Assembly: GCA_038736825.1 (NCBI GenBank)
Contig: JAVYME010000043.1
Coordinates: forward strand, 1-7,949
Reading direction: 5' to 3'
Source of the DNA: Candidatus Iainarchaeum sp.
GTDB taxonomy: Archaea > Iainarchaeota > Iainarchaeia > Iainarchaeales > DTGL01
DNA: 7,949 nt
This document shows positions 2,193 through 7,949 of the stretch, in pieces. The stretch's first letter is position 1; every line of letters starts with the position of its first letter. The notes under the pieces were generated by a model that was not told where the DNA came from, ran no database searches, and saw nothing but the letters and a program-made list of their open reading frames with translations. Made by a program: the position numbers and the translations under genes.

Positions 2193-3116
2193 TTAAACTT
2201 TTTTTTTGTTTGCCAGAAACCAGTAAGCGCTTTCAGCGGCAATTGCGCCCTGTCCTGCTGCAACTATTGCTTGCGCAAATGTTCCAGTAATGTCGCCTGC
2301 TGCAAAAACGCCTTCAATGCTTGTGTTCATTTGCATGCCTGTTTCAATATAGCCTTTTTCTGAAAGCCTGCAACCAAGCATTTTTGCAATCCCGTTTTCA
2401 GGCAGCAATCCAATGTATACAAAAACGCCGTCAACTGCAATCTCTTTTTCTTTTCCGCTAACCCTGTCCCTGTATTTCAAGCCATTGGCTTTTTCGCTTC
2501 CAGTTATTTCAAAAACCTCAGCGTTTAATATTGTTTGCACTTTTTTTTCCTTTAATTTTTCTTCATAAATTTTATCACATTTCAGTTTGTCTCCGAATTC
2601 CAGCAAGAAAACCTTTTTGCAAATGCCTGCAAGGAACAATGCGTTCATTGCCCCAGAATTGCCTCCACCGATTACTGCAACTGTTTTTTCCCTGTAAAGC
2701 GGGCCATCACAAGTGGCACAATAATGGATTCCTTTTCCTTCAAGTTTTTCTGCGTTTTTTGCTTTTAGTTTTTTGTGGGTTGCACCTGAAGCAATGATTA
2801 TTGCTTTTGCCAGAATTTTTTCTCCATTGCCTGTTTCAAGCTCAAAGCCGTTCAATGTTTTTTTTGCTTTTTTTATTTCAATTCCTTCCAGTATTTTTCC
2901 CCCGATTCCTTCAAAGTGTTCTTGCATTTTTTGCGCCAATTCAAACCCTTTTATGGATTTAATGCCGGGATAGTTTTCAACCAGCACTGAATCAACAATG
3001 TTGCCGCCTGCAATTTTTTTTTCAAAAACCAGCACTTTCAATCCTTTTCTCAAAGCATAAATGCCTGCAGTTATTCCAGCAGGGCCTGCTCCTATTATTG
3101 CAATGTCTGTTTCCAT
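2193..3116 (-). CDS. trxB: thioredoxin-disulfide reductase, low-molecular-weight TrxR family (atypical pyridine-nucleotide site)
   Basis: FAD-binding DIAIIGAGPAG at the N-terminus. Redox-active CATC in HYCATCDG (codons at nt 2709-2720, minus strand). Second dinucleotide fold VAVIGGGNSG, and C-terminal GVFAAGD FAD motif. The 307-aa length fits the family. AGGTG SD sits 5 nt upstream of the ATG (AAAGGTGCAAAAATG on the minus strand). Confidence 0.93.
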   Translation of the reverse strand: METDIAIIGAGPAGITAGIYALRKGLKVLVFEKKIAGGNIVDSVLVENYPGIKSIKGFELAQKMQEHFEGIGGKILEGIEIKKAKKTLNGFELETGNGEKILAKAIIIASGATHKKLKAKNAEKLEGKGIHYCATCDGPLYREKTVAVIGGGNSGAMNALFLAGICKKVFLLEFGDKLKCDKIYEEKLKEKKVQTILNAEVFEITGSEKANGLKYRDRVSGKEKEIAVDGVFVYIGLLPENGIAKMLGCRLSEKGYIETGMQMNTSIEGVFAAGDITGTFAQAIVAAGQGAIAAESAYWFLANKKKV

Positions 3117-3313: not shown

Positions 3314-3889
3314 TTGGATAAGCGCTGGTTTAACCTTATAATTTTGACTGCAATAGTTTTGGCAGGAATTATTGCTTATTTTTTCTTTTTTCAAGCGCCA
3401 TCTTTCTCGCAAAGGCTTGAAGCAATGAAAGCCTCTTGGGTGAAAGCTGGCTTGGAAGCAAAACCCCTTCACTTGTCCTATGACAGGCTAAACCGCCTTT
3501 CACAAAAAGAATTATCCGATTTAAAGGCAGGCTTGGTTCAATTCACTGAATCTGAAAAAAATTCTGCTGCAAGAGAATTAGGCGAAGCATATGTTTCCCT
3601 TATAGACATCAGCATTTACAGGCAAAAAATGCTTGAAGTGCAGGAAGAGATTTCAAAAGCCGAAAACCCTTGCACTGTACTGCCAAAATACGATTTGTTG
3701 ACAGAATACAAGGAATCGCTTTTGGCTTCAACAGAAGAATATTTATCCAAAGTGGATTCCTTTGTTTCAAGCAATCCAGAGGCTGCAAGAGAAGCGCAAA
3801 TACAAGCAGGAAGCGGTGCTGAAGAACTAGCCTCCTCGGTTGCCAGGCATAAAACCCTTGTAGCACAATTAAAGGAGGCATGCAAATGA
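3314..3889 (+). CDS. N-terminally membrane-anchored, predominantly helical protein of unknown function (module 1, small subunit; paralog of 6113..6682)
   Basis: TTG start with SD. Single N-terminal hydrophobic helix WFNLIILTAIVLAGIIAYFFFF followed by QAPSF. The rest is charged and Ala/Leu/Glu/Lys-rich. It is collinear with the 6113..6682 product: FFQAPSF at residues 25-31 in both, C120 vs C119 in a C..LP.Y..L block, and C190 vs C188 near the C-terminus. Confidence 0.8.
   Translation: MDKRWFNLIILTAIVLAGIIAYFFFFQAPSFSQRLEAMKASWVKAGLEAKPLHLSYDRLNRLSQKELSDLKAGLVQFTESEKNSAARELGEAYVSLIDISIYRQKMLEVQEEISKAENPCTVLPKYDLLTEYKESLLASTEEYLSKVDSFVSSNPEAAREAQIQAGSGAEELASSVARHKTLVAQLKEACK
3874..3878 (+). promoter_or_regulatory. 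Shine-Dalgarno GGAGG embedded in the last codons of the upstream gene, serving the ATG at 3886
   Basis: AAG GAG GCA TGC AAA TGA. GGAGG ends 7 nt before ATG 3886-3888, which overlaps the stop TGA 3887-3889 (ATGA). Confidence 0.7.
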
Positions 3890-6087
3890 ACACCAAAAGC
3901 CTTCTCGCAATCCTTTTCCTTTCCCTGCTTTTCTCTTCAACAAACGCTTTTGTTTTGAGAACCACAGCCGGCTATCAAATCTTGGACAGAGATGCTCTTT
4001 ACAATGATTCAGTGCAACGTGATGATACAAGACTGGCGCAAGGAACGCTTTTCGCAAAAGCAGGCACAAAACTTTACACTTTGAATCCAAGGCATAAAGC
4101 AGACGGAAAAGCCTTACTGGAAACAACCCCAAAAGTTTTAGTGAATAAAAGCCTTTTGGGAATAAGCGGCACAGGACAGTATTCCTTTGAATTGGATGCA
4201 ATAGAACCAACAACCTATTTGCGCGGTCCAGCTGACCAAATAAGAGGCAGGTGCTCTGACCGCTGTGACGGGCCAAAAGTAAGCCTTACAGTAAAAGATG
4301 ACGGGGGTTACACTCAAGTGGCAGCAAGCAATTTCATCGAGGAAGGCAGAGAAATGATTGCCGGCGATTACAAGTACAAAATCACCAAAATTATTGTTCC
4401 AGAATACAAGGAAACCTGGCTTAAGGTTGGAGGCGACAACCAAACATGGTATTTGGTTTTAGGGCAAACCGGCGTAATGTCTGGACTAACAGAGGCTACA
4501 CCAAAAGACATTATAGTGGAGTTTTGCGTTGCCAAAAGGAATGGCGCTGGCTGGAGCAATTGCTATTATGACAATTCTGGTTCACTAACAGGAGAACTGA
4601 CAATAGGGGAAAGCACTCCAGGCACTGGAATGCAACCGCCTGGCTCGCCAACAGAAATCGGGCAACAAATAGAAGAAGCAACACAAACCGCAGCAGAACA
4701 AGCTGAAGCAGCACAAGGCTCAACACAAGTCACAAGTGGAAAAATTCCCAGCGAAGATGAAGAGCTTGCCAAGTGCACTGCAGACCTTCAAAAGAGTGAA
4801 ACCCTGCTTGTTGCAAAAACAAGGTTCAAGTACGATAGGGCAATAGGTTATCCGCCAGGTGAAACAGGATGGAATGAATTTGTAGCTGATGAAATCCAAG
4901 AAAAAAAGAGTTTCAAGATTGACATGACGGGAGTTGGTTATAGAGATGCTGGCAAAGGGCTTTACGAGTTCTATCTTCAAGGCTTCCATCCAGAACTAAA
5001 AAAATTTGATGGAACTATATCCAAAAAACCAGCATTTGCAACATATGGAACAAGGGATGGCGCGCAAATTTTATGCGGGCATTTCATTGGATTGAACGAA
5101 GAAATGAGTTGCAGTCCAAGAGACGAAATAAAGCCACAGGATGTTATTTACAAGATTTACAAATTCGAAGGGCCTTTTTTCGAACAACCAAGTGAAGGAA
5201 AAAGAGAAATTTTAATGAAAGGGCCACACTGTTATGATGTATGGGCTTATTATATGGTTAAATTCAGGATGGATACAACGCCAAGTGGAGGCCACGAGTG
5301 GTGGATGAAAACAGTTGAAGAAGTGCAAAACTATGCTGAAAGCAAGAAAAGAGGCTATAATCTCATTGTAAATGTTGTTGAAGAGATTGAATACAATTCT
5401 CAACCGATTTCAGGCGCAAAAGTGGTTGCAACAACCACTATTGAAGGAGAAAGTGTTAGGATTGAAGCCAATACAGGTGAGGACGGAAAAGCCAAGCTTG
5501 TGGTTCCAATAAATGCAACAATAACGGTTGTTGCAAGCAAAACAAATTATGTGGATTCAAGCATTATTGTACCACCATTTTCCAGTACAAAAGAGGTAAC
5601 AATTGCCCTAAAAAGGAATCTTTACAATTTAAAGGTTGCCTTTGCAAGGGATGACTTTTGGACTTTGTACTACAGGTATGCACCACAACACCATGGTGAT
5701 CCAACAACACCGGGCGTTAACACTGCAGACAAAGCGTTCCTTGACTCGCATGTTCCAACAAAGGAACACTCAGACTATGTTTACAGTGTTGCAGACAAGT
5801 TTTTGGCTTTAAAAACAAAGCCTTGCGATGATCCTTCTGGAGAAACAATTCCAAGCAAGGTTAGAACCGATTTTCAGCACCTAACAATCAAGGACACCCG
5901 CCAAGGCCATGAAAATCACGATGTAAGGCTTTACAATGTCCTTGAATTTGAAAACTTGAAACTGGACAGCTATTATTATGCTTGTTATTCTCGCACAATT
6001 GACGGAGTGAAAAAAACAAGAGAGATAAAATGGCATATCAAAATTAATGGAGTGCTTGAAGAGCCAGATCCGCCTAGAGATATTTGA
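3886..6087 (+). CDS. large secreted protein of unknown function (module 1, large subunit) with an internal carboxypeptidase-regulatory-like beta-sandwich segment
   Basis: The longest ORF begins at ATG 3880, but that start is only 1 nt from the GGAGG. ATG 3886 has a 7-nt spacer and an ATGA overlap, so it is preferred. Signal peptide MNTKSLLAILFLSLLFSSTNA|FV. Ten cysteines in the mature part (an even number, compatible with disulfides). A Pro/Gly/Thr/Gln/Glu/Ala-rich linker (GESTPGTGMQPPGSPTEIGQQIEEATQTAAEQAEAAQGSTQ, nt ~4609-4730) separates the N- and C-terminal regions. Residues NLIVNVVEE..QPISGAKVVA..TGEDGKAKLVVP..ATITVVASKTNYVD..VTIALKR (nt ~5359-5616) fit the CarboxypepD_reg / Ig-like pattern. 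No TM anchor at the C-terminus. Confidence 0.85.
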   Translation: MNTKSLLAILFLSLLFSSTNAFVLRTTAGYQILDRDALYNDSVQRDDTRLAQGTLFAKAGTKLYTLNPRHKADGKALLETTPKVLVNKSLLGISGTGQYSFELDAIEPTTYLRGPADQIRGRCSDRCDGPKVSLTVKDDGGYTQVAASNFIEEGREMIAGDYKYKITKIIVPEYKETWLKVGGDNQTWYLVLGQTGVMSGLTEATPKDIIVEFCVAKRNGAGWSNCYYDNSGSLTGELTIGESTPGTGMQPPGSPTEIGQQIEEATQTAAEQAEAAQGSTQVTSGKIPSEDEELAKCTADLQKSETLLVAKTRFKYDRAIGYPPGETGWNEFVADEIQEKKSFKIDMTGVGYRDAGKGLYEFYLQGFHPELKKFDGTISKKPAFATYGTRDGAQILCGHFIGLNEEMSCSPRDEIKPQDVIYKIYKFEGPFFEQPSEGKREILMKGPHCYDVWAYYMVKFRMDTTPSGGHEWWMKTVEEVQNYAESKKRGYNLIVNVVEEIEYNSQPISGAKVVATTTIEGESVRIEANTGEDGKAKLVVPINATITVVASKTNYVDSSIIVPPFSSTKEVTIALKRNLYNLKVAFARDDFWTLYYRYAPQHHGDPTTPGVNTADKAFLDSHVPTKEHSDYVYSVADKFLALKTKPCDDPSGETIPSKVRTDFQHLTIKDTRQGHENHDVRLYNVLEFENLKLDSYYYACYSRTIDGVKKTREIKWHIKINGVLEEPDPPRDI

Positions 6088-6112: not shown

Positions 6113-6682
6113 ATGAAAAAAAACCAAAAAATCGCTTTAATCGCAATAATCCTTTTGGTTGTTATAATCGCGGTTTACCTGCTTTTCTTTCAAGCGCCAT
6201 CCTTTGAAAAAGAATACGAGCGCATGAGCCTTGCATGGAAAAACAATGGGTTGAAAGAGGAAAGATTGCACGCTTCAGAGACTGTTTTTTCCCTTGATTC
6301 AGAGAAAATCGAGGACATTCGCTCCGAAATATCCTCCTTTTCTTCTTCTCCGAATCCCGCAATCAAGGACCTTTCAACAACCTATCTTTTGTTCCTTGAA
6401 AGCGCAAAAATAGCCTCCGAGATTTCCAGTATGAGCGAAACCCTTGCTGGTTCTCAGCAAGGCCTATGCGAAAGCCTTCCAGCTTACGAACGCCTTGGCA
6501 AAAAATTTTCAGAACTTGAAGAAAAAAAGGAAGCCTACCTTAAAGCCACAAACGCTTTTGTTTCAAAATATCCAAAGGAAGCTGAATCCATTTCCCTGAA
6601 AGCAAACACTGCCGGTTTGCAGGGAGCTTCTTCAAGCAAATTCGTTGAACTGCTTGAAGTCGCCAAGGAGGTGTGCTCATGA
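6113..6682 (+). CDS. N-terminally membrane-anchored helical protein of unknown function (module 2, small subunit; paralog of 3314..3889)
   Basis: ATG start preceded by GGAGCGTGAT (6100-6109). TM helix IALIAIILLVVIIAVYLLFF followed by QAPSF. Shares the W..(x)GL....LH.S, C.(x)LP.Y..L, YL......FVS..P..A and KE.C-terminus blocks with the 3314..3889 product. Confidence 0.85.
   Translation: MKKNQKIALIAIILLVVIIAVYLLFFQAPSFEKEYERMSLAWKNNGLKEERLHASETVFSLDSEKIEDIRSEISSFSSSPNPAIKDLSTTYLLFLESAKIASEISSMSETLAGSQQGLCESLPAYERLGKKFSELEEKKEAYLKATNAFVSKYPKEAESISLKANTAGLQGASSSKFVELLEVAKEVCS
6667..6671 (+). promoter_or_regulatory. Shine-Dalgarno GGAGG(TG) embedded in the last codons of the upstream gene, serving the ATG at 6679
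   Basis: AAG GAG GTG TGC TCA TGA. GGAGG ends 7 nt before ATG 6679-6681, which overlaps the stop TGA 6680-6682. The geometry is the same as at 3874-3889. Confidence 0.7.
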
Positions 6683-7949
6683 AAAAAGCCTTTTTTGCAA
6701 TAATCGCAATCATGTTGCTGGCATTCACAGGACAGGCATTTGCGTACGACAAGCTGGATGCACTTGTAGACCAAGGAAGGATAAAAATAAACATACTAAT
6801 TGATCCAACCCCTTGGGATCAAAAGGTTTCATATCAGTGGAACAATGTTGTGCTTCAAACACCAGCGCAAATAAACGTGAACGATCCTGCTGTTTCAGCC
6901 ACGGGTTCTTTTTCATTTTACAGGGCATCACATTCTGTTGCACGTAAAACCACGCCAGACCGCTCTGAACTTAACCCAAGGCACAATATTGGCTTAGAAT
7001 ATTATTCGCTCAAATATGAAATACAGCCAAATTTTGTTAGAGTTGAGCCAGTGCCAGGCAGAAGCCAAGACACCCAATTCATTTACAAATTCACTATATT
7101 AAAAGGGGTTGGCGCAAACCTTACCCAATGCCATTCAACTGGCGAATTCAAGCTTTTACTTCCAGACACTCCAACTGAAGAGGACGCTCCTGCTAGAGGA
7201 ACAGAAGACGAAATGTTGCCAGGCTCAAGGGGATATAAGTATGTGACAGTTGATGCCTTAAGCCAGTGCGGCATAAGATTCCAAGTTTACAGAACCCATT
7301 CTTGGTTTGGTGACCATGTTTGGTTTCTAAGGTTTGATTTTTCAAGAAATGAAATAATAAACTATTTTTTGCCACAACTCTTGCAAAACACCGCTGATGC
7401 CTCGCTAAAACAATCCATTACTGAAATAATCGGAGCACAATTACCACCAACTAAGACTTGCACTCCAAAAACTTGTGCTGAAATGGGTTGGGAGTGCGGT
7501 TCTGGTGTTGAGGACAGGTGCAATACAACAATTCAATGCCAAGCTTGCCCGAGTGGCAAGACTTGCAACAATTCAATCCATAAATGTGAGACATTCAGCC
7601 CACCCTGTGTTCCAAAAACCTGTTCAGAGCTTGGTTGGCAGTGTGGCACTGGTGATGATGGTTGCGGTGGAACCTTGAATTGCGGAGATTGCCCGACAGG
7701 CCAAAAATGCAATATTGGAACCCACAAATGTTGCACTCCAAAAACTTGTGCTGAAATGGGTTGGGAGTGCGGTTCCGGCATTGAGTCTGGATGCAATAAT
7801 ACAATTAATTGCGGTAATTGCACTGGTGGCAAAACATGTAATACTGAAACTCACAAATGCGTAAGCACTTGTGTTCCAAAAACCTGTTCAGAGCTTGGTT
7901 GGCAGTGTGGCACTGGTGATGATGGTTGCGGTGGAACCTTGAATTGCGG
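6679..7949 (+). CDS. secreted protein (module 2, large subunit) with a unique N-terminal domain and a C-terminal array of 8-Cys repeats; 3' end runs off the window
   Basis: Not in the supplied ORF track because it has no stop in the window. I translated frame 1 from 6679 by hand and found no stop through 7949 (423 full codons). Signal peptide MKKAFFAIIAIMLLAFTGQAFA|YDK. A ~235-aa N-terminal region is followed from residue ~261 by repeated modules CxPKTCxExGWxCGxG....C...(I/L)xCxxCxxGxxCxxxxHKC. Confidence 0.85.
   Translation, partial: MKKAFFAIIAIMLLAFTGQAFAYDKLDALVDQGRIKINILIDPTPWDQKVSYQWNNVVLQTPAQINVNDPAVSATGSFSFYRASHSVARKTTPDRSELNPRHNIGLEYYSLKYEIQPNFVRVEPVPGRSQDTQFIYKFTILKGVGANLTQCHSTGEFKLLLPDTPTEEDAPARGTEDEMLPGSRGYKYVTVDALSQCGIRFQVYRTHSWFGDHVWFLRFDFSRNEIINYFLPQLLQNTADASLKQSITEIIGAQLPPTKTCTPKTCAEMGWECGSGVEDRCNTTIQCQACPSGKTCNNSIHKCETFSPPCVPKTCSELGWQCGTGDDGCGGTLNCGDCPTGQKCNIGTHKCCTPKTCAEMGWECGSGIESGCNNTINCGNCTGGKTCNTETHKCVSTCVPKTCSELGWQCGTGDDGCGGTLNC
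7459..7949 (+). repeat. in-frame tandem coding repeat: alternating A/B types of an 8-cysteine ~42-49-aa module (A1 7459-7605, B1 7606-7731, A2 7732-7869, B2 7870->7949)
   Basis: 7606-7685 and 7870-7949 are identical over all 80 nt (offset 264 nt). 7458-7502 and 7731-7775 are identical over 45 nt (offset 273 nt) and then diverge. Each module has eight Cys at conserved spacing. Confidence 0.92.

Follow-up and report, generated by a model that had tools for sequence, protein, structure and literature searches.

The window, that is, the whole 7949-nt stretch of DNA that was analysed, ends inside an exact 80-nt repeat, which is the 5' part of two copies of a cysteine-rich module (B) in a gene that was probably truncated by the assembler. 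In this reading, a pair of modules, A and B, would have been duplicated long ago, certain tracts of the two copies would have been kept identical by conversion, and the resulting array would serve as a stalk-like part of a secreted protein.

An exact repeat at the end of a truncated gene

The 80-nt repeat is real. Positions 7606–7685 match 7870–7949 at 80 of 80 nucleotides, their starts lying 264 nt apart, which agrees with the perfect repeat at a 264-nt period, running up to the window edge, that was described in the first-pass annotation. The identity cannot be extended leftward, and rightward it reaches the last base of the window. When the window was searched with the 80-nt sequence and up to three mismatches were tolerated, these two sites were the sole matches; at the same tolerance, none of 200 dinucleotide-preserving shuffles gave even two 80-nt matches. 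The two copies belong to an array, A1-B1-A2-B2, that lies C-terminally in the encoded protein (Table 1), where the B-to-B spacing corresponds to 88 codons, in frame. The A-to-A spacing is 273 nt, and the 9-nt difference sits in the linker, which reads ETFSPP after A1 and VST after A2. The 45-nt core that A1 and A2 had been said to share, the 9-nt length difference, and the two-module unit of 88 aa are thus all upheld, the last by the in-frame spacing and by the pairing of A1 with A2 and of B1 with B2. At the DNA level, A1 and A2 are 76–77% identical across 126–129 nt. The A/B array is absent from the Tandem Repeats Finder output for the window; it comprises fewer than two units (1.8 are visible), and its middle block is strongly diverged and contains indels.

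Table 1. Features of the module protein and of the gene upstream of it (window coordinates)
Feature	Position	Strand	Basis
189-aa protein with N-terminal membrane helix; stop shares 4 nt with the module-protein start	6113..6682	+	paralogue of 3314-3889
Module-protein CDS, 3'-truncated (423 codons + 2 nt)	6679..7949	+	open frame from ATG to last base
Predicted Sec signal peptide, MKKAFFAIIAIMLLAFTGQAFA, AxA cleavage motif before Y23	6679..6744	+	read from translation
N-terminal domain, aa 23-260 (~235 aa), rare family, mostly beta, two invariant Cys	6745..7458	+	relatives, alignment, AF2
Module A1 (43 aa, 8 Cys) and linker ETFSPP	7459..7605	+	module HMM, E 1.7e-16
45-nt perfect tract, 5' part of A modules	7458..7502 (= 7731-7775)	+	longest exact A1/A2 match
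Diverged block, unit 1 (counterpart 7776-7869)	7503..7605	+	all 42 differing columns, indels included
Module B1 (42 aa, 8 Cys); first 80 nt are repeat copy 1	7606..7731	+	module HMM, E 7e-20
Module A2 (43 aa, 8 Cys) and linker VST	7732..7869	+	module HMM, E 2e-16
Module B2, first 26 codons + 2 nt; repeat copy 2, ended by contig	7870..7949	+	module HMM, E 3e-13 (partial)

An in-frame unit present in near-identical DNA copies is characteristic of repeat surface proteins, and it is found here in the 264-nt (88-codon) unit with its 80/80 and 45/45 nt tracts. In-frame repeats of a few hundred nucleotides, with up to 100% DNA identity, occur in the alpha C and Rib proteins of group B streptococci and in SasG and Aap of staphylococci; these repeats undergo concerted evolution, their number varies between strains, and short-read assemblies break or collapse there. 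Those repeats, from Gram-positive bacteria, are cysteine-free Ig-like or G5-E folds, whereas the modules here are rich in cysteine, and only 1.8 units of them can be seen.

The first-pass annotation had raised the possibility that the end of the sequence was also the end of a contig. Indeed, the window is an entire contig: the module protein is 100% identical to MEM0360806.1 (P0001; 424 aa) from a Candidatus Diapherotrites archaeon MAG, which NCBI labels as 'hypothetical protein QXK06_05740, partial' and which is encoded on one contig only, of 7949 nt, as is the product of the upstream gene (QXK06_05735). Since the contig ends inside the repeat, it does not fix the number of modules in the gene, and variation in the copy number of the array is plausible. 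The situation is an ordinary one, in which a short-read assembly broke at the near-identical, in-frame modules of a secreted repeat protein. Being incomplete in its module number and its C-terminal part, QXK06_05740 is unsuitable as a model of the full-length protein; more generally, short-read MAGs are likely to cut off disulfide-rich repeat proteins of DPANN archaea in a systematic way.

Another explanation, which we consider rather unlikely, is that the repeat owes its identity, its length, or the adjacency of A2 and B2 to the assembly graph, the terminal 80 nt being either a k-mer overlap or loop closure that re-enters the node at 7606 or the product of merging two B copies that differed slightly. 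The window is a whole, short MAG contig that ends in the repeat, and its last position, 7949, lies exactly 80 nt beyond 7869, which is the last base to differ between the two entries into B (the corresponding base being 7605). A de Bruijn walk that re-enters a visited node covers k-1 (or k) bases of the shared sequence before it stops, and the figure of 80 may therefore reflect k = 81, with a k-1 overlap, or k = 80; moreover, the popping of bubbles in de Bruijn assemblers could turn an identity of ~98% into one of 100%. Nor was a continuation found on any other contig: exact degenerate-pattern scans for the module core in genome, metagenome, and viral contig collections gave no match, and neither did a tblastn-confirmed scan of metagenome contigs with the N-terminal domain (in a scan of genome contigs with the relative P0121, the matches were dominated by the MopE-like motif). 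If the 80 nt were an effect of k, the identity would be at least one base longer and would possibly extend to the whole unit, in a loop of any multiplicity. Against an origin in the graph, the k-mers of a contig must exist in the reads, so the junctions between the A2 tail and the 5' end of B and between the 3' end of B and the 5' end of A2 are real in some genome; furthermore, independently assembled relatives have near-identical tandem modules inside their contigs rather than at the ends.

The eight-cysteine module and its relatives

With the module protein as query, 310 proteins were found at E ≤ 0.001, each covering ~39% of the query, which corresponds to the repeat region. Those with a named source come from Myxococcota (Myxococcales, Polyangiaceae, Labilithrix, and Corallococcus) or other Proteobacteria, mostly from the former, and the only entry with an archaeal name among the matches is the query itself. 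In the best 120 of the 310 proteins, a module HMM detected 725 modules, at 2–13 per protein, with the consensus CTPKTCADLGAECGTVSDGCGGTLDCGTCPAGQTCNAETHKC, a length of ~42 aa, and 8 cysteines. Across 58 segments of two modules each, 15 of the 16 cysteine positions never vary, and the remaining one is at least 90% conserved. In the archaeal protein, the cysteines of each complete module are spaced as C-x4-C-x6-C-x6/7-C-x5-C-x2-C-x5-C-x6-C, so that both the cysteine spacing and the profile based on relatives place these modules within the 8-Cys, ~42-aa type. The 3' part of the B module reads AGATTGCCCGACAGG.... The setting is likewise that of a tandem array in secreted multidomain proteins, given the 2–13 modules in the 120 relatives and the predicted signal peptide of the module protein; elsewhere, the partner domains of the module include CBM2, PKD, M10 peptidase, VWA, beta-helix, and Hint.

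Neither Pfam nor NCBIfam contains a family that matches the module protein at E ≤ 1 or, above cut-off, the repeat region of seven bacterial relatives; PHROGs yielded no known family for the module, and neither the sequence nor a profile found a relative in the PDB, the best E of the profile being 1.7. AlphaFold2 modelled A1+B1 from the 58-sequence alignment with a pLDDT of 93.6; in this model, each module has one short helix and two small hairpins. A Foldseek comparison of this model with the PDB returned nothing significant, the best matches (E 0.48) being EGF domains of coagulation factors at a TM of 0.26–0.29, and no significant fold neighbour was found among viral models. A mostly myxobacterial, still unnamed 8-Cys module is present in a DPANN archaeon. 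The module is widespread, occurring in secreted proteins by the hundred, and its model is confident; as it lacks both a Pfam or NCBIfam model and a relative of known structure, a family could be defined on it.

Several known types of repeat resemble the module. The Cys-rich tandem repeats of TraA from Myxococcus xanthus, which separate a receptor domain from a sorting tag, have been proposed to form a rigid stalk (PMC3325183). Like TraA, the module protein has a signal peptide and an N-terminal globular domain followed by tandem Cys-rich repeats, and Myxococcota account for most of the module's relatives. The TraA repeat, however, has 22 positions, whereas the module has 42 residues and 8 cysteines, and the module protein differs further in that it contains no PA14 domain, in that the region of a C-terminal sorting tag is cut off, and in that its host is an archaeon. 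Although TIGR04201 (Myxo_Cys_RPT) aligned with the C-terminal half of B1 (GDCPTGQKCNIGT), it did so over 13 residues at 13.7 bits (E 0.054), below the cut-off of 25, and the whole protein gave no match, which speaks against membership in that family. The Myxococcus cysteine-rich repeat (DUF4215 / IPR011936) is likewise a tandem, extracellular, Cys-rich repeat, which is widely found among Myxococcota and has spread to further lineages; assignment to DUF4215 / TIGR02232 was rejected, as neither the module protein nor the repeat region of its relatives gave a Pfam or NCBIfam match.

EGF-like and hevein modules (the latter in wheat germ agglutinin, WGA) also have ~40 residues and 6–8 cysteines and occur in tandem outside the cell, but the cysteine spacing of the module is different and lacks a CC pair. 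An EGF-like domain was discarded in view of the missing Pfam match and of Foldseek values of E ≥ 0.48 and TM < 0.3, and a hevein or type 1 chitin-binding domain in view of profile E values of 5.3–8.8 against WGA chains. CysRRep (Daugavet et al., bioRxiv 10.64898/2026.06.07.730663) was rejected as the same repeat on account of its spacing, Cx6-9Cx5-7Cx8-11Cx7-8CC.

The G+C content of the module region (7459–7949) is 47%, compared to 41% for the part encoding the N-terminal domain (6679–7458) and ~36–45% for the rest of the contig. The higher value is probably due to Cys and Gly codons and not to a foreign origin.

Perfect and diverged tracts within the two units

At the protein level, A1 and A2 are 72% identical, A and B modules 53–58%, and B1 and B2 completely so over the visible part. 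A1 and A2 are closer to each other than either is to any module elsewhere. The best foreign match of B1 (71%) exceeds its identity to the A modules. A and B are accordingly old subtypes, and a pair of them was duplicated. A separate observation concerns P0065 (ENA; on a 2183-nt contig), which contains four nearly identical A-type modules (CTTKTCGQMGWECGSGTESGC...) that are the closest relatives of the A subtype.

When the two units were aligned (7458–7685 with 7731–7949), all 42 differing columns, indels included, fell in alignment columns 45–150, between flanks of 45 and 80 perfect columns. Were the 27 mismatches placed at random over 216 columns, a clean run of at least 80 would have P ~3e-5. 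Nei–Gojobori counting of synonymous and non-synonymous changes gave a pS of 0.71 (a dS of ~2.3, saturated) and a pN of 0.27 for A codons 16–43. The first 15 A codons contain a single synonymous difference (and none if 14 of the 15 are counted) and no non-synonymous one, and the 26 visible B codons contain neither; at a pS of 0.71, zero synonymous differences in 26 codons has P ~4e-10. Within the diverged block, dN/dS is ~0.15, and the 8 cysteines and the module length have been kept.

A simple explanation would be one recent tandem duplication of the whole A-B unit of 88–91 aa, after which the copies would have diverged in the ordinary way or the 3' part of A would have come under positive selection. 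Such an event would account for the in-frame unit and for the pairing of A1 with A2 and of B1 with B2, and a duplication of this kind does exist in a relative: at locus L001 (the gene of P0039), an A-B-like two-module unit of 261 nt occurs twice at 2062–2583, with a fairly uniform identity of 94%. The mismatches in the archaeal gene, by contrast, are far from uniform (the P of ~3e-5 above), and the diverged block is old and has been under purifying selection, as its pS and dN/dS indicate, while the flanks are essentially without synonymous change. With a saturated block between perfect tracts, it is untenable that the 88-aa unit was duplicated just once and recently, and the dN/dS of ~0.15 leads us to reject positive selection on that block; the recent whole-unit duplication is accordingly very improbable. 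The first-pass annotation had offered recent duplication or ongoing gene conversion, of which the former has to be abandoned as a recent event affecting the whole unit, in view of the pS of 0.71 between perfect tracts, while the latter fits the mosaic.

The reading that we prefer is therefore one in which the A-B pair would have been duplicated long ago and in which gene conversion of short tracts, or unequal recombination between neighbouring modules, would keep the perfect tracts identical, as in concerted evolution; the conversion is deduced here from one single sequence. The assembler, unable to leave the repeat, would then have truncated the gene. Instead of representing the old state, the diverged block of A1/A2 might have come in from another module. 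Relatives show similar behaviour: apart from the duplicated unit at L001, 132-nt modules at loci L002 (the P0002 gene) and L003 (the P0027 gene) are 86–92% identical, and at L003 the mismatches cluster beside an 87-nt perfect run.

Contact with host cells is essential to DPANN archaea, and the alternation of perfect and highly diverged blocks might be taken as a sign of programmed variation, in which constant segments (B and the first 15 A codons) would alternate with variable cassettes of ~100 nt that are shuffled or rewritten by recombination or by a diversity-generating retroelement, thereby varying a protein of host contact. We give this little credence: just two variable blocks are visible, no ORF of the contig encodes a reverse transcriptase or recombinase domain, the differences are not confined to adenines but include T/C and G/A changes as well as indels, and the variable block preserves the 8 cysteines and the length of the module. 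The absence of a reverse transcriptase from the contig ORFs and the lack of adenine specificity led to the rejection of the block as the target of a diversity-generating retroelement. Scarcely more probable is a bolder proposal, that the array is much longer, with collapsed constant segments of 170 nt alternating with divergent cassettes of ~100 nt, that recombination varies the length or cassette order of a DPANN host-contact protein, and that the module, whose other occurrences are almost all in Myxococcota, was acquired by transfer between domains of life.

The N-terminal domain, the putative stalk, and the neighbouring genes

The N-terminal domain has four genuine relatives (P0121, P0122, P0124, and P0125) among 1.84 billion representative proteins, and 18 invariant positions, two of them cysteines, are common to the family. 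A further candidate, P0123, was rejected: it is an Arg-rich protein of 415 aa with repeats of ~67 aa, its E of 9e-12 comes from four short stretches, and it looks like a translated DNA repeat. A word-indexed search with the profile of the domain returned only the query itself. The AF2 model of the domain (pLDDT 77.6, pTM 0.79) is mostly beta, and a fold search of the PDB with it gave no neighbour, only noise with a TM below 0.2.

In P0121, P0122, and P0124, the N-terminal domain is followed by Asp/Cys repeats of the MopE-like or TSP3 type, and a C-terminal domain of ~130 aa is common to all four relatives; in P0124, the N-terminal domain is present twice. The Cu-binding_MopE-like (PF11617) and TSP type 3 repeats of these three proteins thus occupy the same position as the modules, between the shared N-terminal domain and the C-terminal one. 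The likeness is one of position: those repeats are Asp-rich and likely to bind metal, whereas the sequence of the module is unrelated to them and no such motif occurs in the module protein. This arrangement, with other Cys/Asp repeats at the same place and the ~130-aa domain after them, is the ground for the idea that the module array may act as a disulfide-stabilised stalk or spacer, by which the N-terminal domain would be held away from the missing C-terminal part. The stalk proposed for TraA follows the same logic. By analogy with these relatives, the module protein probably continues, beyond further modules, into a C-terminal domain.

The 189-aa protein encoded immediately upstream is a likely co-expressed partner of the module protein. 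The contig contains two pairs of overlapping genes, 3314–3889 / 3880–6087 (overlap of 10 nt) and 6113–6682 / 6679–7949 (overlap of 4 nt), and both pairs are probably translationally coupled. Each consists of a gene for a protein of ~190 aa, with one N-terminal membrane helix and a cysteine 1–2 residues before the C-terminus, and, after it, one for a large secreted protein. The two proteins of ~190 aa are paralogous (27% identity, E 6e-15), and their genes have a 20-nt stretch of DNA in common (3386–3405 / 6185–6204); no relationship could be detected between the two large secreted proteins. A word-indexed search with the small membrane protein recovered nothing but the query, and no homologue was found outside the contig.

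No RNA family or tRNA was found in the window. A gene at 9–1832, which reaches the start of the contig, encodes an XPD/Rad3-type helicase with Helicase_C_2, HBB, and DEAD_2 domains but without its N-terminus, its matches to the YoaA and DEAD-domain profiles starting at profile positions 41 and 17. On the opposite strand, 2193–3116 encodes a thioredoxin-disulfide reductase, for which TIGR01292 gave 313 bits, just below the cut-off of 343. The first of the large secreted proteins (3880–6087; 735 aa) has a CarboxypepD_reg-like stretch at aa 506–577, which is sub-threshold (19.8 bits, cut-off 32.3), and otherwise no family match. Within its gene, at 4675–4717, 2.9 copies of a 15-nt repeat encode a linker rich in Ala, Glu, and Gln.
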